DNA of 32,000 bases, taken from the NCBI RefSeq assembly GCF_000025945.1, contig NC_006138.1, positions 1,470,001-1,502,000 on the forward strand. Reading direction: 5' to 3'. Of the stretch, positions 8,455 through 23,904 are shown piece by piece. The number at the start of each line of letters is the position of its first letter. Position 1 is the first letter of the stretch. The stretch is from Desulfotalea psychrophila LSv54. GTDB taxonomy: Bacteria; Desulfobacterota; Desulfobulbia; Desulfobulbales; Desulfocapsaceae. The translations under genes and the position numbers were made by a program. Under the pieces are notes generated by a model. The model saw only the letters and a program-made list of their open reading frames with translations. It searched no databases and was not told the origin of the DNA.

Positions 8455-8940
8455 TGTGCCTTCCTTATTGTCTAGTGTGAAGCTGTTGACTGATGTGTGG
8501 CCTGTGTTGCGCCGGTTAATGTACTATTTATAAATGATAGCAGAAACTTATGTAAAAGAAAAATTAAAGTGAAAAAGGGGTGATATTTACTTCATCACAG
8601 TAAGTTACTGGACTTATTCTCTCCTTTTGAAGAGGAGGTATTTGAGCTGTAATTCCCCTATTAGCAATCTGCTCTATTTTCCCCATGGCATAAGGGGAGA
8701 AAGTGTATAAGGTGTCGCCTGTTTTGGAGGGTTTGTGCCCTCATTTGATTTTCAGTTCCCTGTCTCTTGCAAAAGCCTATTCTCCTGCGAAAACACTTGT
8801 TAAACGAGAAGAAGGTGCTATGATAACTATGGAGATGTAAATAAAAGAAATAATAAGTATCAATGGGATTGAACAAGGAAAAAAAGGACGTATTGTCGGC
8901 CTCAAAGGACTGTCTCCCATGAAATGGAGTGTATAAAATT

Positions 8941-9918
8941 ATGTCTATTACTTTAAGACAATTAGAGATATTTATTGCAGTTGCAGAAACAGCACAGGTT
9001 ACTAAGGCAAGTAAAAAACTTTTTGTAACCCAGTCTGCTGTGAGTATGGCCCTTGCTGAGCTGGAAAACCAGTTGGGTGGGTCTCTCTTTGATCGTCATG
9101 GCCGGAGTTTGCTCTTGAATGCTCGTGGCCGTTACCTTCTGCCTTTAGCAAAAGAGATATCCGGGCAGATTTCGAATATTGAAGTCATCATGTCAGAGAA
9201 GAACGATACTCTTGAAGGGCATATTGAGGTAGTTGCCAGTACGACCTTGGGTAATTATATCCTGCCCTATCTTATAGGGGCCTTTAAGCGGGTGCATCCT
9301 AAGGTGCAGGTGAATATGTTGGTCTATAATACTCGTCAGGCAAAGGAGTTGGTGCGTGCGGGGAAGATGGACGTGGGCTATGTGGAAGGACCTGTTCAGG
9401 CAACGGAAGATTTACATGTGCGTCCATGGTTTGAGGATGAGCTTGTTGTTCTCTGTGGGCCGAATGATCCGTTGGCTAACAACACTGCCTTTGATGTTGA
9501 TACCGATCTTGCTGGAGCTAAATGGATTGTGCGTGAACCGGGTTCCGGTACTGCCGCCTATTTTGAGAAAAAGATGGGCAAGCACTTTGAGAATGTTTCA
9601 GTGGTAATGGAGCTGGGTCATCCCGAGGCGATCAAACGTGCCGTTGAATCCGGTGTGGGGATTTCCTGTCTCTCAGCTCTCTGTATCTGCCGTGAAAAAG
9701 AAAACGGTTGGTTAAAGAGTCTGAAGATTGAGGGGGTTGATATGAAGCGACAGCTTCGAGTTGTTCAACGAAAGGATGTTGTAATGACCGATGCGCTTGC
9801 TGAGTTTATCTCTTTTTGCGATGTGATGTCTTCCTGTAGTGAATCCCGGATTTGCCTCTCCTCTCCGTGGAAACTTCAATCCCTTCTGGCAAAGCACTCT
9901 AGCCAGAAAGGAAAATGA
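8941..9918 (+). CDS. LysR-family transcriptional regulator
   Basis: The N-terminal LRQLEIFIAVAETAQVTKASKKLFVTQSAVSMALAELENQLG is a canonical LysR wHTH, followed by a ~200-aa substrate-binding domain. The ORF track begins at GTG 8929; I prefer ATG 8941 (MSITLRQLE). Confidence 0.9.
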   Translation: MSITLRQLEIFIAVAETAQVTKASKKLFVTQSAVSMALAELENQLGGSLFDRHGRSLLLNARGRYLLPLAKEISGQISNIEVIMSEKNDTLEGHIEVVASTTLGNYILPYLIGAFKRVHPKVQVNMLVYNTRQAKELVRAGKMDVGYVEGPVQATEDLHVRPWFEDELVVLCGPNDPLANNTAFDVDTDLAGAKWIVREPGSGTAAYFEKKMGKHFENVSVVMELGHPEAIKRAVESGVGISCLSALCICREKENGWLKSLKIEGVDMKRQLRVVQRKDVVMTDALAEFISFCDVMSSCSESRICLSSPWKLQSLLAKHSSQKGK

Positions 9919-17792: not shown

Positions 17793-19726
17793 TGTTTGGT
17801 GAAGGAAGGCTAGATGCAAAGTTGTTGCCTGTGCGTGAGATCCAGAAGACTCTGTTTGAGATGTTTATCGCCAGTGTTGCCCATCATTCAGATAATATTG
17901 CCTATATATATAAGGTTAACGGTGAAGAGCTGCGGGTAACCTATTCAAAGCTCTTTGAGGATGTGCTTCTGTTGAGCAGGGCCTTTAAGAGGCGGGGCTT
18001 GGGCAGGGGCGATAAGGTGATGCTCCTCTCGGACAACCGTTATTCCTGGATCGTTACCGATCTTGCCCTTCTCTCCCTCGGGGCGGTAAATGTCCCCCGC
18101 GGCTCGGATACCCCCACTCAGGAACTTGAGTTCATTGTTGAACATTCTGAGAGTGTTCATCTGATTGTGGAGAGCAGTAAGTTGCTTGATCTGCATGCTG
18201 ATTATATCAAGAGATGCCGACAGATAAAAGACATCTTCATTATGGTGGCAGGAGAGGTGCATACCCTCTTTGGTCGTACCTATTCCTATCAGGATCTGCT
18301 TGCCAATCGTCAGTATAGCGAAAAAGATGTGAATAATTTTCTGGAAGAGGGTTATTCCTCTACCGAAGATGATTTTGTTACCATAATCTATACTTCAGGT
18401 ACTACAGGGGTGCCCAAGGGGGTCCAGCTCAGCAACAAGAACATTATGCATAATGTTGATTGTTTGCCGGGGATTATTCGTCTTACCGAGGAAGATCTGT
18501 GGCTCTCCATTCTTCCCAGCTGGCATATTTTTGAACGTACTGCCGAGTATGTTGCCCTTGCCGCCGGGACAACCCTCGTCTACTCCACGGTGCGCACTCT
18601 GGTCCAGGATCTGGAGAGATATAAACCGACCCTGTTGGCCACCGTGCCTCGGGTATGGGAATCTCTCTACTCCAAGGTGGACTCAGGGGTACGTAAAAAA
18701 GGAGCAATGGCCTATAGAATCTTTACTTCTCTTATCTGGTGTTCTTCCACTTATCGACGTAACAGAAGGGAATTTCTTGATCGGCTGCCAGTTTTTGCAA
18801 AGCCTAATTCCCTTGTTCGGTTTGGCCAAAAAGGTGTGGCTTTGGTGAAGATGTTGTTCCTTTATCTGCCCTATCTTTTTGCCGAGAAAAAGCTCAATGT
18901 GGTGCGCCAGCGTTTTGGTGGCAGGCTACGCTTGGCGATCAGTGGTGGAGGTAGTCTTGCCGATTACCTTGAAGAGTGGGTTGATGCCGTTGGTATTCGT
19001 ATTGTTAATGCCTATGGGATGACCGAGTGTTCGCCTGCTATTGCCGGACGTGGACTCGACTGTCGGGTCTATGGAACGGTTGGCGCAGGTGTTACCAATA
19101 CCCGGATTCGCTTGGTTGATGATGATGGCCTTGAAGTCTCTCAAGGAAAAGAGGGGTTGATTGAGGTTGTGGGCGATCAGGTTATGGGCGGTTATTATAA
19201 AAACGATGTGGGGAATATCGAGTCTTTTACCGATGATGGTTTTTTTAGAACCGGTGATCTCGGACGAAGGACGATCAGTGGTGATCTGGTCCTAACCGGT
19301 CGGGCCAAGGATATTATTGTTCTCTCCAGTGGGGAGAATATTGACCCCAGCCGGATTGAGAGTGCTATCTCTGTTTTTCCCTTTGTTCAGGATGCTATTT
19401 TGGTTGGGCAGGACAAGAAAGGACTCGGTGCCCTCCTTGTTGCCGACAGAGAAGAGTTGCTAAAGTATGCCGATAGCAGATTTTCTCATCTGCGTAAAGC
19501 CAGTCAAGAGCTTCTCAAGGATAATAAGGTGCTTGAACTGATTCGCAAGGAGATGAACGATAAGCTCCGGCCTAAGCAGGGGTTTAAGTCCTATGAAAAG
19601 TTGCATAAAATTACTTTCTTAGAAAAGGAATTTAAGCTCGGTGAAGAGCTGACCAATACCCTGAAAAAGAAACGTCATGTTATAGAAAAGAAATATCACA
19701 AGGTTATCAACGATTTGCTCCATTAA
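17792..19726 (+). CDS. Long-chain acyl-CoA synthetase (AMP-forming, ANL superfamily)
   Basis: IIYTSGTTGVPKGVQLSNKN AMP-binding motif, YGMTEC, GDLGRR...GRAKDII. ATG 17792 overlaps the ubiE TAA (TAATG); the ORF-track start at 17777 is a TTG five codons upstream. Confidence 0.88.
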   Translation: MFGEGRLDAKLLPVREIQKTLFEMFIASVAHHSDNIAYIYKVNGEELRVTYSKLFEDVLLLSRAFKRRGLGRGDKVMLLSDNRYSWIVTDLALLSLGAVNVPRGSDTPTQELEFIVEHSESVHLIVESSKLLDLHADYIKRCRQIKDIFIMVAGEVHTLFGRTYSYQDLLANRQYSEKDVNNFLEEGYSSTEDDFVTIIYTSGTTGVPKGVQLSNKNIMHNVDCLPGIIRLTEEDLWLSILPSWHIFERTAEYVALAAGTTLVYSTVRTLVQDLERYKPTLLATVPRVWESLYSKVDSGVRKKGAMAYRIFTSLIWCSSTYRRNRREFLDRLPVFAKPNSLVRFGQKGVALVKMLFLYLPYLFAEKKLNVVRQRFGGRLRLAISGGGSLADYLEEWVDAVGIRIVNAYGMTECSPAIAGRGLDCRVYGTVGAGVTNTRIRLVDDDGLEVSQGKEGLIEVVGDQVMGGYYKNDVGNIESFTDDGFFRTGDLGRRTISGDLVLTGRAKDIIVLSSGENIDPSRIESAISVFPFVQDAILVGQDKKGLGALLVADREELLKYADSRFSHLRKASQELLKDNKVLELIRKEMNDKLRPKQGFKSYEKLHKITFLEKEFKLGEELTNTLKKKRHVIEKKYHKVINDLLH

Positions 19727-19765
19727 TGGAGATGTTACTCATTCATTTTCTTTTACTCAAACCTA

Positions 19766-19805
19766 CGCACCCCCTCTTGTTCTCCCCCTCGCCAAGGTGG
19801 AGAGA
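19766..19805. repeat. REP-like GC-rich hairpin element, left copy
   Basis: CGCACCCCCTCTTGTTCTCCCCCTCGCCAAGGTGGAGAG. It shares the CGCACC end and the CTCGCCAAGG core with the reverse complement of the 19895-19931 copy. Confidence 0.6.
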
Positions 19806-19894
19806 CTTTCAGCAGAAATATGGCAACAGACGAAGCCTCTGCTCTTGCCCAATCTCCTCTTTTTTGCCCTTTCTCGCATCTTTTCTGCTTTTAG

Positions 19895-19931
19895 CCCCTC
19901 TCCTTGGCGAGGAGAGGTTGGGTGAGGTGCG
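19895..19931. repeat. REP-like GC-rich hairpin element, right copy (inverted)
   Basis: CCCCTCTCCTTGGCGAGGAGAGGTTGGGTGAGGTGCG contains an internal hairpin CCTCTCC-TTGGCGA-GGAGAGG. Its reverse complement aligns with the left copy. Confidence 0.6.
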
Positions 19932-20195
19932 TTCGTGCCGGAGGCAATTTCCTCCATTCCGTCAACTCTTATCAAGGGAGCAGGTCGCTCGGAACAATAA
20001 CTGTTTGTCGATTTTCAAAAGGTCTCACCTTTTCAATGCCAAAACCCATAAGAGATGGGGGCATTTAAGCGTTACAGTGTACTACATATCTGCAAAGCGA
20101 TAGCTGCCGATAAGAAAATAATGGTAGAGGTAAAGGCTAAAGGAAAAAAGAGGCCCTACCCGTTGTAGGGAAACCCTAAGCTTGCGCTCATGGGA

Positions 20196-20605
20196 GAATA
20201 AACACATGCAAAAAGCCTAAAAACCAGAACATTGGCGCAATATACATTTGTATAAAGCCTCAAACATTCAGTAGTCGACCAATATACAAATGTATAAAGC
20301 CCGAAACACCCAGGAGTGGAGCAATATACAGATGTATAAAGCCTGAAACATCCAGGAGTGGAGCAATATACAAATGTATAAAGCCTCAAACATCCAGGAG
20401 TGGACCAATATGTAAATGTATAAAGCCTCAAACACCGAGGAAACACAATATGCAAATGTATAAAGCCTGAAACATCCAGAGTGGACAATATACAAATGTA
20501 TAAAGGGTGAAACTTGAGTCTCGACCAATGTACCCGTGCATAGGGTGAAAACTGCCGAGGTTGACCAATGTACGAATGTCGAGAGGCTTGAAAGATGGGG
20601 AATGG
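20196..20605. repeat. Array of ten head-to-tail 40-42-bp direct repeats, each built around a TATACA-NN-TGTATA palindrome
   Basis: The CAATAT(A/G) register starts at 20196 (degenerate), 20238, 20280, 20322, 20364, 20406, 20446, 20486, 20526 and 20566. The spacing is 42 bp five times, then 40 bp four times. Consensus: CAATATACAAATGTATAAAGCCTSAAACATCCAGGAGTGGAG. The outer copies are degenerate. ORFs 20156..20488 and 20268..20528 are translation artefacts of this repeat. Confidence 0.95.
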
Positions 20606-20763
20606 CTTATCTAGAGGATCTTATCTTAGGTGAGATGGAGGACTCTCTTCTTATTTATGCAACAAGGCCGCATTGGTGTTAAAGAATTGATTATCTTTTC
20701 AAATTCACACATATTTATTTTCCTGATGGATAATGCTCATTAAAGCTAACTCCTCATTAAGAG

Positions 20764-20809
20764 GCAAAAAATTGTTGGCCAAAATCAGCGAGGCACGAGC
20801 ATGGCCAAC
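20764..20809 (-). terminator. Candidate (bidirectional) terminator downstream of the 141-aa gene
   Basis: GTTGGCCA (20774-20781) pairs with TGGCCAAC (20802-20809) across a 20-nt loop. The minus strand continues AATTTTTTG and the plus strand continues TGTTTTTGTCCTTTT. The long loop lowers confidence. Confidence 0.4.
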
Positions 20810-20834
20810 TGTTTTTGTCCTTTTGAATGACTTG

Positions 20835-21260
20835 TTATAAACCGTTTTCACGTGTGCTCATTAAAAAAGCCTTAAACCTAATAATGTTAGGAGTTTCATT
20901 GCGTTTCAGCATCGAATACTCTGTGAGAGCATCAGTTATAGCCATAAAAGAATCCAGTTTTAAGTTTAAATAGGCAAAACGATCTGCTTTATTATCCATG
21001 TGTTTAATAGAATTTTTCGGGCGCTTATCTTCTTTTTTGATAGCTGTTCTATTAATTTGTTCATCTATAAATTTAGCTGCTTGATCTAGTATCATAGTAG
21101 TAAAATCTTGCCCGCCGTTTATTCTTAGCCATTTACCATATATTTCTTGAGCAGCTCCAGCTAAATGCAGCGCCGAAAAATATTTTTGACCATCTAGATA
21201 TGATTCAATAGCACTCTCTAACATTTCATCTGCAATAGTTAATTTATCAAACTTTTCCAT
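20835..21260 (-). CDS. Hypothetical all-helical 141-aa protein with a possible HEPN-like (DUF4145-like) motif; partner of the Shedu-like gene
   Basis: AT-rich ORF 58 bp downstream of the 417-aa gene on the same strand. The N-terminal helix pair MLESAIESYLDGQKYFSALHLAGAAQEIYGKWL and R80-P-K-N83-S-I-K-H87 (codons 21023-21000) resemble the HEPN Rx4-6H signature. This is not a confident family assignment. Confidence 0.55.
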   Translation of the reverse strand: MEKFDKLTIADEMLESAIESYLDGQKYFSALHLAGAAQEIYGKWLRINGGQDFTTMILDQAAKFIDEQINRTAIKKEDKRPKNSIKHMDNKADRFAYLNLKLDSFMAITDALTEYSMLKRNETPNIIRFKAFLMSTRENGL

Positions 21261-21318
21261 GGGATTCCGATAGGTTTATAACGGCAGAAATCAGGCGCCG
21301 ACCAATGGATTTACCGCG

Positions 21319-22572
21319 TCAGCGCCCCATACCCCTTCCCGTTGCCTGAATTAATTTGTTGTGTGTTTTAGACCACTGACTTATTGTAAACTTAAGTCGC
21401 TCTAATAAATCATCATATGTAATGATGTCGATTACATTTTTGTATTTTCTTTTAATAACTTCAAAATCTTGCACCTGCTCATGTGTCATACCCTTTTTAC
21501 GACCCATAATTATAATGCCGCTTGGATTTGTTATTTTTATTTTGAAGTTCTCTGGCAATTCGTCTTTGTAGTGCTCTGTTAATTTTTCCTCTCCTTTTTT
21601 ACCCCATTTATTTAAATAGAAAATATACTTCTCAATTTGCATTACCGTACCAGAAAGTTCTCTTAGCGGTATGTAGTTGTCTCTATAAGTTCTTGTAGTA
21701 ACTATACACTTGTCGAAGGGCTTCTTTATTTCGATAATGTCTGTATTTCCGCTGGAATCTATTAGTAAATAGTCGATTTTTCGATCCGCTTTGTTATAGG
21801 TATCCCTGACAGGAGCTTCCTTGAATGCATGTATATATTTGGGATATAGCAGTAGTATAATTTGCAGCAATTCCTCCTGCCATTGAGCTTCAGTATAAGA
21901 AACTTCATCCTCAAGCATAGAATTAAGCTTTTCAGAAATGCTTGTAAATTTAATTAGTTCGAGATTTGAAAAATCATACTGAAGATTAGCTCCCTTTCTA
22001 CCATTTTTTTTATTTAAATATTGTTGATAACGTTCCTCATAGTCGTCATTAATTTCTATGTATGAAGATAAAACGCCACTGATCCTTGCTGAAACATATT
22101 TATTTAGTTCATTTGTATTGGGAAATGTTTTCAATAAACCATAATAAACCGGCATTGAGATCGCGTCTTCTTCGTCACCACCTATATAAATGGGACGATT
22201 TACCATGTTATCTATTTTGGGAAATATTGATATGTTACGTTCCGCGACAAAAAACCTACGTTCTAGTTTTATATCTTCATGCACATATAGATCGTGTTTT
22301 AAAGATAAAATATCCTTCGGGAAGCGATAGTATTCCCCATCCTTAACAGCAACTTCAAATTCAACTGGAGCCTCTTCGTCTTCTTTATTGAAAGCAGAAC
22401 TAAGATTCTTTTGGCTAAACTTGAAGACTTTACTAATTGTAACTCTGCCTGATTTATCCAATTCGTGATAGACCCAATTATGCGTGGGATAATCGCTTGA
22501 GTAGCAGAGTAAGATTTTGTTATCTAATTCCTTAAATTTAATCATATATTTGGGTTGCTCGCATTGAGACAT
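21319..22572 (-). CDS. Shedu-like (DUF4263) PD-(D/E)xK nuclease, putative anti-phage defence protein
   Basis: 417 aa, AT-rich. The C-terminal third reads EAQWQEELLQIILLLYP...RKIDYLLIDSSGNTDIIEIKKP...GTVMQIEKY...PSGIIIMGRKKGMTHEQ...VIDIITYDDLLERL. This gives a D...D...E-x-K nuclease core, a Q-x-x-x-Y helix and a TYDDL tail, as in DUF4263/SduA. The N-terminal ~250 aa has no recognisable domain. The start could be M10 (22545). Confidence 0.65.
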   Translation of the reverse strand: MSQCEQPKYMIKFKELDNKILLCYSSDYPTHNWVYHELDKSGRVTISKVFKFSQKNLSSAFNKEDEEAPVEFEVAVKDGEYYRFPKDILSLKHDLYVHEDIKLERRFFVAERNISIFPKIDNMVNRPIYIGGDEEDAISMPVYYGLLKTFPNTNELNKYVSARISGVLSSYIEINDDYEERYQQYLNKKNGRKGANLQYDFSNLELIKFTSISEKLNSMLEDEVSYTEAQWQEELLQIILLLYPKYIHAFKEAPVRDTYNKADRKIDYLLIDSSGNTDIIEIKKPFDKCIVTTRTYRDNYIPLRELSGTVMQIEKYIFYLNKWGKKGEEKLTEHYKDELPENFKIKITNPSGIIIMGRKKGMTHEQVQDFEVIKRKYKNVIDIITYDDLLERLKFTISQWSKTHNKLIQATGRGMGR

Positions 22573-22903
22573 AATGACCCGAGGTGAGCCACGAGATTGT
22601 TTTGTGATTTGGGCACCGTGTACAGGTCCTGGATTGAAAAATGGTCGCAGTCGCTTCCCTTATTGCTGGGGACTTAGCTCCGGGGCGACAAATTTTTCTT
22701 TAAAACTGCTGTTTATCTCCTCTGGTAACATAATGGAGGAGCAGATGGAAGACAAGCTTATTTCACTCCTGAGCCTAGCTTTAACTCTATGGAAAGTGGC
22801 AGAGTCTCTTATGGGGAGACCTCTACTCATTCGTAACGGAGAAAAGATGTTACTCTTCGAATATTAGATATTTATCCTGCTATAGCACTAAGGCAAACTC
22901 TTG

Positions 22904-23812
22904 CTACGATCGCCCCTTTTTATTAAGGGGGTAGCTGCTCTCTCGGTAAAAAATAAACATTCCAGAGGCAATGATGATGCCAGCGCCCAGCAGGGTTTGG
23001 GCACCAGGGAATTGCCCAAAAAGTAGCCAGCCAAGAATGGTGGCACTCACTATTTCGAGATATTGAAAGGGGGCAAGAACATTGGCATCTGCTTTGGTGA
23101 AGGCGATGGTTAAAAGTTGATGGGAGATAAGGGAGCTGGCGCCAACACCAAGAAAAAGGAGGGCAACCTCAGTCGTTGGCCAGGAGAGTTCAAAGAGCGG
23201 CAGTGAAAATGCATCTCCTAGTAAGGTTATGGGTAAAAGAAAGAGAGTTGCACCCATGCTTGCGTAGAACTGCATGGCGTTGACACTCTCTCCTCTTTTA
23301 CTCTGTTTTCTCGTTACAATAAGATATAGGGCAAAAAAGGTTGCGGTGAGAAAGGGGAGGATGGCGGTTGCACCAAAATTTGTGAAGCTGGGGCCGATGA
23401 TGAAGAGGGCGCCGGCAAAGCCAATCAAACAGGCTGTTATTCGTGCAATACCAATTTTTTCTTTAAGAAGTACGGCGGAAAAGAGGGTTAAGAGGAGGGG
23501 TTCTGCAAAGAAGATAGCAATGGCATCGGCCAGAGGCATTTGGGTAATTGCGGCGATAAAGCAAAGAGATGCCACTGCATTGAGAATACCTCGCAAAAAA
23601 TGGGTGGCCAGCAGAGGGAGCTTAGGGATTTTAAGTTCCCGGTAGGCAAAGGGAAAAAGCAGTGCACCCTGTAAAGAAAAACGGACTAAGGCAATTTCAC
23701 CGGGGGAAACATAGGCTGTCAGAACCTTACTTATGGCATCAATAACCGGAAGCAGCAAGGCTGCTGCTATCATAATAAGTAATCCTTTTTGCTGTGACTT
23801 TCTTTCCTCCAT
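22904..23812 (-). CDS. EamA/DMT-family transporter
   Basis: 302 aa with about 10 TM segments in two EamA-like halves. A strong SD (AAGGAGGAGG) precedes the ATG. Confidence 0.85.
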   Translation of the reverse strand: MEERKSQQKGLLIMIAAALLLPVIDAISKVLTAYVSPGEIALVRFSLQGALLFPFAYRELKIPKLPLLATHFLRGILNAVASLCFIAAITQMPLADAIAIFFAEPLLLTLFSAVLLKEKIGIARITACLIGFAGALFIIGPSFTNFGATAILPFLTATFFALYLIVTRKQSKRGESVNAMQFYASMGATLFLLPITLLGDAFSLPLFELSWPTTEVALLFLGVGASSLISHQLLTIAFTKADANVLAPFQYLEIVSATILGWLLFGQFPGAQTLLGAGIIIASGMFIFYRESSYPLNKKGRS

Positions 23813-23904
23813 GCCTCCTCCTTAAAAAGTAAATAGGAGGAGGGTACTGTAGGAGTAACGGATTCGCAACAGGAGAAAGTTGGTTAGTATGCTTTCGCCT
23901 CACT

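Follow-up and report, generated by a model that had tools for sequence, protein, structure and literature searches.

A dyad-bearing 42-bp tandem repeat array in Desulfotalea psychrophila LSv54, probably one of a small lineage-specific family of interspersed minisatellites

Introduction

Several described repeat systems share features with the tandem array analysed here. MIRU and other bacterial VNTRs/minisatellites, like our array, consist of tandem 40-100-bp units, lie between genes, occur at several loci, have decayed edges and are restricted to a lineage. BOX elements of S. pneumoniae, with their tandem 45-bp boxB modules, and the REP/BIME elements of enterobacteria resemble it as dispersed non-coding repeats with palindromes and tandem modules, and often, as it does here, lie 3' of genes or between two that converge. 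The sopC site of the F plasmid comprises twelve 43-bp repeats bound by SopB. Its units, as in our array, run head to tail, span about four helical turns and carry one inverted repeat each. Finally, the ToxI, CptI and TenpI arrays are built, as ours is, of tandem non-coding units of ~34-45 nt, a likeness to which the terminator-like hairpin following the array here can be added.

The array lies in the chromosome of D. psychrophila LSv54 and was studied within a window, by which we mean the whole 32-kb stretch of DNA analysed. An earlier note on this DNA had described ten repeat copies centred on a palindrome and offered two readings: a sopC-like centromere or iteron array, or an array of structured RNAs linked to the adjacent defence cassette. 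Here we describe the array and its relatives, consider its genomic setting, and weigh these and other explanations.

Array structure and unit conservation

Tandem Repeats Finder resolved 7.6 copies with a period of 42 at 20193-20505, together with a period-84 reading at 20233-20505 (score 367), and a repeat search found 8-9 in-register copies with successive start spacings of 42, 42, 42, 42, (42), 40, 40, 40 and 40. Units start at 20196, 20238, 20280, 20322, 20364, 20406, 20446, 20486, 20526 and 20566 (u1-u10), and all are in direct orientation; the place of the array and the starts of its units are those that had been described before. The count of ten copies stands in part: seven units (u2-u8) are solid, but u1, u9 and u10 are relics, with 42-64% identity to other units and under nhmmer detection (Table 1). 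One of these relics, u9, has retained hairpin potential in a shifted register.

Table 1. Coordinates, strand and supporting analyses of the features at the array locus (positions within the window).
Feature	Coordinates	Strand	Basis
Tandem array, 10 unit-length registers (6 x 42 bp, then 4 x 40 bp)	20196..20605	.	Tandem Repeats Finder, repeat search, unit alignment
Seven well-preserved units, u2-u8	20238..20525	.	nhmmer E 7e-12 to 3e-7 per unit
Edge unit u1, degenerate (identity to other units 50-64%)	20196..20237	.	alignment, identity matrix, nhmmer
Edge units u9 and u10, degenerate (identity to other units 42-62%)	20526..20605	.	repeat search, alignment, identity matrix, nhmmer
14-bp dyad TATACAAATGTATA (example)	20283..20296	.	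pattern search
Remaining dyads	starts 20241, 20325, 20367, 20409, 20449, 20489	.	pattern search
Terminator-like hairpin CCCTACAACGGGTAGGG then CCTCTTTTTT, next to the array at its minus-strand 3' end	20145..20170	-	terminator scan and fold
Integron attC site, at the end of the cassette with the 141-aa gene	20736..20848	-	blastn matches, alignment, nhmmer, fold
141-aa cassette gene DP1336	20835..21260	-	conserved all-helical family, 62 homologues
Shedu nuclease SduA (DP1337)	21319..22572	-	Pfam SduA_C E 3.8e-42, PADLOC E 2e-162

Every core unit bears the dyad TATACA-NN-TGTATA. Searching for TATACANNTGTATA with at most two mismatches recovered seven matches inside the array and nine in the 32-kb window, where 1.0 was expected and a count of nine was reached in 0 of 100 shuffles. 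The two central bases are AA at 20283, 20367 and 20489, TT at 20241 and GA at 20325, so that both the palindrome and its alternative centres agree with the earlier description. Mutation of the arms toward the outer copies, also described there, is present, but it affects the inner units u6 and u7 as well.

The consensus of u2-u8 reads CAATATACAAATGTATAAAGCC|TGAAACATCCAGGAGTGGAG, with a conserved first block of 22 bp (block A) and a variable last block of 18-20 bp (block B). Comparing each of these units with the consensus, changes were found at 8 of 154 positions in block A (5%) and at 23 of 140 in block B (16%; gap-aware Fisher p = 0.002), statistics that are indicative only, as the units are few and mutually non-independent. 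Indels are all confined to block B, with none in block A. Within the dyad, the arms carry 3 changes in 84 positions and the two central bases 3 in 14, and in the unit alignment conservation extends to CAA and AAAGCC, the flanks outside the palindrome. Pairwise identity peaks in the central units and falls off toward the edges. Neither pattern nor nhmmer searches found a second copy of the unit elsewhere in the 32-kb window.

Two peculiarities of individual units may be recorded here. The u2 dyad (20241-20254) reads TATACATTTGTATA, which is exactly what the usual TATACAAATGTATA becomes on reverse complementation; the palindrome looks as though template switching had inverted it. On the plus strand, many units in 20280-20405 read GGAG, then 10 nt, then ATG TAT AAA GCC TGA; this Shine-Dalgarno-like arrangement upstream of a 4-codon mini-ORF (MYKA) is probably a coincidence, because its ATG belongs to the dyad.

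Paralogous arrays in the same chromosome

The T-rich minus strand of the unit holds no stop codon, so gene callers run through the array, and this property allowed related arrays to be sought at the protein level. Using the stop-free 110-aa ORF at 20159-20488 (minus strand) as a phmmer query against 1.84 billion representative proteins, the best two matches were DP0866 (CAG35595.1, E 4e-14) and DP0839 (CAG35568.1, E 3e-5), both annotated as "unknown protein" of D. psychrophila LSv54; the remaining matches, a sea slug sequence among them, are minisatellite-like ORFs of 14-aa period with no relation to the array. DP0866 contains six and DP0839 five 14-residue repeats at exact 14-residue offsets, with a core, C[FL]RLYT[FS]VYC, that results when TGTTTCAGGCTTTATACATTTGTATATTGC, the core of the present array on its minus strand, is translated. 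The four other residues of the repeat are LFLR, PSTQ, STTQ, SSPR or PSPQ in the two proteins as against STPG in the present array, and the LFLR type resembles its u6 (VFPR). Over 17 units, the mean match to consensus is 0.72 at core positions versus 0.41 at the four variable residues.

Reading DP0866 and DP0839 from their translations, the three arrays (these two and the DP1335 region) have in common a ~30-nt core, GCAATATACAAATGTATAAAGCCTGAAACA, that includes the 14-bp dyad, and the remaining ~12 nt of the unit vary both within and between them. On the same translated evidence, at least three arrays of ~5-10 units each occur in one chromosome; DP0866 and DP0839 lie ~470-500 genes from the present array and 27 genes from each other. 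Since their 14-aa (42-bp) repeats translate the same 30-nt core, we assign the arrays to a lineage-specific interspersed minisatellite family, and this membership, taken by itself, appears highly probable. All three arrays contain the same variants of the unit, namely CFR/CLR, YTS and a variable segment of the LFLR/VFPR type; that CFR/CLR and YTS are shared points to a common multi-unit ancestor. The earlier note had held that a dispersed, high-copy minisatellite would tell against its functional readings, and what we found goes part of the way there, with at least two more arrays in the genome (DP0866 and DP0839), seen at the level of translation.

DP0839 and DP0866 look like spurious calls of translated repeat DNA, as do the ORFs called across the present array at 20156-20528 on the minus strand, probably DP1335, which look like translated repeat or non-coding DNA. 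A genuine repeat protein encoded by the array was rejected: the 40-bp units break the frame, a ribosome-binding site is lacking, and the pattern of conservation is not codon-like.

Genomic setting

The array is intergenic and non-coding, and sits in a 1.1-kb 3'-3' gap with fadD (DP1333, plus strand) on one side and the minus-strand pair of the 141-aa gene and Shedu, which was acquired horizontally, on the other. The fadD product, an acyl-CoA synthetase, and Shedu are both 100% identical to LSv54 proteins. The window represents core chromosome, with nuo genes, a LysR regulator gene, truA, asd, hisB, asnS, ubiE, fadD, MOSC, Usp and recC (DP1343). Pfam scans of 30 ORFs found no ParA/ParB/SopB, Rep, relaxase, integrase or cas gene in the 32-kb window, which likewise contains no ToxN-like gene. 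The earlier statement that neither par/rep nor any other DNA-binding gene is visible is right about par and rep, but not strictly true of DNA-binding genes at large, given the LysR-type regulator at 8929-9918. The neighbouring defence gene that it mentioned is indeed present, and is the Shedu nuclease SduA (Table 1).

The fadD-MOSC interval (window 19727-23900, corresponding to 9935-11893 in the relative L136 and 9935-10463 in L137) is a variable hot spot in Desulfotalea relatives, occupied in one of them by a periplasmic-binding-protein gene and Ni-SOD and in another by an MCP gene; in LSv54 it contains an EamA transporter gene besides the array and cassettes. Downstream of fadD lies a CT-rich stretch (19845-19888 and 19897-19917 region) with a 19-bp tandem repeat in 2.2 copies and a 7-bp-stem hairpin, CCTCTCC...GGAGAGG, which no T-run follows; it has no known match, its sole Rfam match being a weak, sub-threshold one to whalefall-1. 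The 125-aa ORF DP1334 (19726-20103, plus strand) looks like a spurious gene call, because its composition is implausible and it matches no family.

On its other side the array adjoins an integron attC site (Table 1). This element is 77-85% identical to sequences present in multiple intergenic copies on replicons of Pseudoalteromonas, Vibrio and Aliivibrio, and in an alignment with two such copies the similarity ends exactly past the GTTA of R'. Its boxes read ATAAC (R'') and GAG|TTAGC (R'), it is matched by nhmmer at E 1.5e-30, and its bottom-strand hairpin folds at -15.3 kcal/mol (z = -2.7). Integron integrase is absent from the window, making this an attC site (or cluster) without an integrase, in a sulfate reducer. 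The array starts ~150 bp past the R' boundary of the last attC, and regex and HMM searches for a second attC that would enclose it as an ORF-less cassette found none.

Together, DP1336 and its attC site (20736-21283, minus strand) make up a complete integron-type cassette, from G|TTATAAACC through GAG|TTAGC. The DP1336 DNA is 96.7% identical to metagenome contigs in which it has a different context, the homology starting at G|TTATAAACC, near 21283. Metagenome copies of the cassette adjoin a PIN/Phd toxin-antitoxin pair. In two of them (L131 10395-10536 and L132 1189-1315) the 141-aa gene has lost its 3' end to sequence coding ...LEDYRWSSYPSYINQSKAPTWLY..., where both contigs stop; the encoded segment, as we take it, resembles a REP-associated (IS200-like) tyrosine transposase.

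The 62 homologues of the 141-aa protein come mostly from marine Gammaproteobacteria and share the invariant residues K82, N83, K86, H87 and D93; homologues of the gene occur within same-strand arrays of small ORFs. UniProt calls the protein "similar to alpha-acetolactate decarboxylase", a name for which we see no foundation. In its AF2 model (pLDDT 86) the fold is all-helical, and the HEPN-like PDB matches are non-significant; with this fold, and with homologues that occur without arrays, we rejected the protein as a cognate binder or toxin. The 141-aa gene and Shedu form a low-GC island (GC 0.30-0.39). A short attC-like hairpin candidate, GCAACGG...CCGTTATAA, overlaps the Shedu 3' end at 21284-21350 (minus strand; fold z only -1.6), and suggests that Shedu may itself be an integron cassette.

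Searches in other genomes

A blastn search of the array against 72,556 plasmids (PLSDB) and 50,697 phage records returned zero matches. In the syntenic relative L136 (asnS-ubiE-fadD ... MOSC-Usp-RecC) other genes fill the fadD-MOSC interval, and neither it nor a Desulfotalea MAG contains sequence similar to 19700-20850; the closest relatives, whose fadD is 72% identical at the amino acid level, lack the array wholly. A two-unit pattern gave zero matches in IMG/VR and matched TA/TG microsatellites alone in JGI metagenomes, and a one-unit pattern, too degenerate to be specific, gave 120 single chance matches over genome contigs, none of them tandem. There is also no array at the loci of the 141-aa homologues. 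The Shedu homologues that come nearest, at 84% and 78% identity, reside in other defence contexts, with neither a 141-aa gene nor a tandem array beside them. Given these array-free homologues of both neighbours, the specific tie to the defence cassette that had been proposed earlier is unlikely. Literature searches combining the organism with repeats, the dyad sequence, integron/attC or the locus tags found nothing relevant.

Preferred explanation

We regard the array as a member of a small, LSv54-specific family of 42-bp interspersed minisatellites in which the dyad core has been kept as a protein-recognition site, a statement which, taken whole, we hold to be somewhat better than an even bet. 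Its second half is the more tentative: a protein-recognition role for the core falls a little short of an even chance. Among functional readings, a protein-binding array is nonetheless the most plausible. Slipped-strand mispairing or unequal recombination would grow and homogenise the arrays, a mechanism that we infer because their edges are decayed and their centre is homogenised, and duplication of multi-unit blocks would spread them, as unit variants shared by three arrays suggest. The core would be retained because a protein dimer recognises it as a dyad-symmetric site, be it a DNA-binding factor of the host or the enzyme responsible for mobilisation. The 42-bp spacing (~four helical turns) would set successive sites on one helix face. 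Passive transcription probably crosses the array on its minus strand and reaches as far as the hairpin at 20145-20170. Two observations count against this explanation: between two gene 3' ends there is no promoter for the array to regulate, and the switch from 42- to 40-bp units spoils strict helical phasing.

If the dyad core does bind a protein, the arrays would constitute an uncharacterised multi-site chromosomal landing pad beside mobile defence cassettes. Pressed further, and by analogy, each array could be a cis-acting landing pad of 5-10 phased dyads on which a putative D. psychrophila DNA-binding protein builds a complex like that of sopC/SopB. We think this extension rather improbable; were it true, the arrays might mark or insulate the borders of acquired DNA, silence such DNA, or serve chromosome organisation. 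If no protein binds, they could still be useful as strain-typing (VNTR) markers. For annotation, the arrays show the "unknown protein" calls DP0839 and DP0866, and probably DP1335, to be seeming artefacts of the stop-free repeat strand.

Alternative explanations

A neutral minisatellite, born of selfish or accidental duplication, with a core conserved through recent ancestry, gene conversion or palindrome-templated repair, is an unlikely alternative but one with a substantial claim to attention. The unit is confined to a single lineage, its decayed edges and homogenised centre are typical of unequal crossover, a cognate gene is lacking nearby (32-kb window), and its site, with convergent genes on either side, is a non-regulatory one. 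In u2, moreover, the dyad centre is an exact inversion (TT for AA), which palindrome template switching would be expected to produce. Yet under neutrality all positions of the unit share one history, whereas the core is 3-fold less changed within the array and has been conserved across three arrays in which the other 12 nt diverged, and hairpin-templated repair does not explain why the non-palindromic CAA and AAAGCC are conserved too.

A second alternative, which we find distinctly doubtful, is that the array acts as a minus-strand repeat RNA, whether as a long 3' UTR of the Shedu/141-aa transcript or as a separate sRNA ending at 20145-20170, with U-rich units (CCUGGAUGUUUCAGG plus an AU hairpin) that bind or titrate an RNA-binding protein or are processed at unit length. 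The terminator-like hairpin and T-run directly past the array fit such a transcript; the hairpin may end a minus-strand transcript crossing the array, and makes passive transcription of this strand plausible, though terminator-like sites occur in shuffled sequence at 1.5 per 2 kb. Three units contain GGAUGU, which resembles a CsrA-type motif (SELEX consensus), and a 701-nt minus-strand fold reaches z = -4.8, compared with -2.3 on the plus strand. Such long-fold scores are strong because any tandem palindrome array would yield them, its low MFE being expected, and single units fold no better than shuffles (z from -0.5 to -1.6). Rfam searches over the array gave nothing at the gathering score and nothing at E up to 10, and the consensus fold of the unit (RNAalifold) has an energy of -0.17 kcal/mol on the plus and 0 on the minus strand. 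In the candidate unit hairpins (the AU-rich dyad and CCUG-N7-CAGG), 79% of cells are paired on the plus and 74% on the minus strand, there is no excess of covariation over shuffles, and wobble pairs lean slightly to the plus strand, against the strand proposed. A promoter scan found no promoter-like site between 20606 and 20745, and the best-conserved part of the unit is the AU-rich dyad rather than the GGA segment. The structured-RNA array that had been suggested earlier thus fails at each of the Rfam, folding and covariation tests, and membership of a known structured RNA family, CsrB/Rsm sponges included, was rejected on the same results.

The centromere or iteron reading, in which the array would be the relic of a sopC-like partition site or iteron origin carried in by an integrated plasmid or ICE, is very improbable. 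Its geometry holds, each 42- or 40-bp direct unit having one inverted repeat, but nothing else does: the window has no adjacent ParA/ParB (SopA/SopB) operon, Rep, relaxase or integrase, the location is core chromosome with flanking genes syntenic with those of a relative, no similarity appeared among the 72,556 plasmids, and the unit recurs at no fewer than two other chromosomal loci. For an iteron origin in particular, inspection of the unit gave no DnaA-box match, and the flanks are convergent gene ends. What remained of the earlier note's centromere or iteron proposal is the geometry alone, and we have removed this tempting reading as unsupported.

Least probable of all is that we are dealing with the degenerate form of a CRISPR-like array or of a type III antitoxin (ToxI-like) one: a ~28-nt core with an internal palindrome and a GAAAC end recalls CRISPR repeats and a 40-42-nt unit falls within the ToxI/CptI range, but the would-be spacers (inter-core segments) are just 12-14 nt long and homologous to each other, the window has no cas genes, neither strand offers a ToxN/AbiQ-like or adequately sized ORF 3' of the array, Pfam and PADLOC return no match for the flanking ORFs, and 141-aa homologues exist without arrays. 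In short, the array is neither the centromere of a plasmid nor an iteron origin, and it belongs neither to CRISPR nor to the ToxI-type antitoxins.

Other candidate identities were also rejected. REP/BIME elements do not fit 32 kb without a further copy, an AT-rich 14-bp dyad and units that are all direct. An array of sigma-70 or sigma-54 promoters gave no scan match, and the spacings are unsuitable by inspection. To our knowledge, none of the dif/Xer, loxP-like, LexA, NrdR, Zur, ModE, DnaA and IHF motifs fits.

Comparison with known systems

Set beside the systems with which we began, the array departs from each in definable ways. From sopC it differs in having no adjacent sopA/sopB-type genes, in being chromosomal and multi-locus, and in showing no similarity to PLSDB plasmids. 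From the ToxI, CptI and TenpI arrays it differs in the lack of a toxin gene 3' of it, in its 7-10 units as against 2-5.5, and in the lack of support from structure or covariation. Compared with REP/BIME, the array has neither the GC-rich REP stem nor the GTAG motif, and its units are direct where BIMEs alternate; compared with BOX, it is without flanking modules of the boxA/boxC type; and its predicted RNA or DNA hairpins are weak. MIRU, finally, belongs to a different sequence family and is known at 41 loci against three here; the small overlapping ORFs of MIRU are not seen in our array, whose unit has instead a conserved 14-bp dyad. The array represents a new sequence family within a known kind of element, that of MIRU and BOX.
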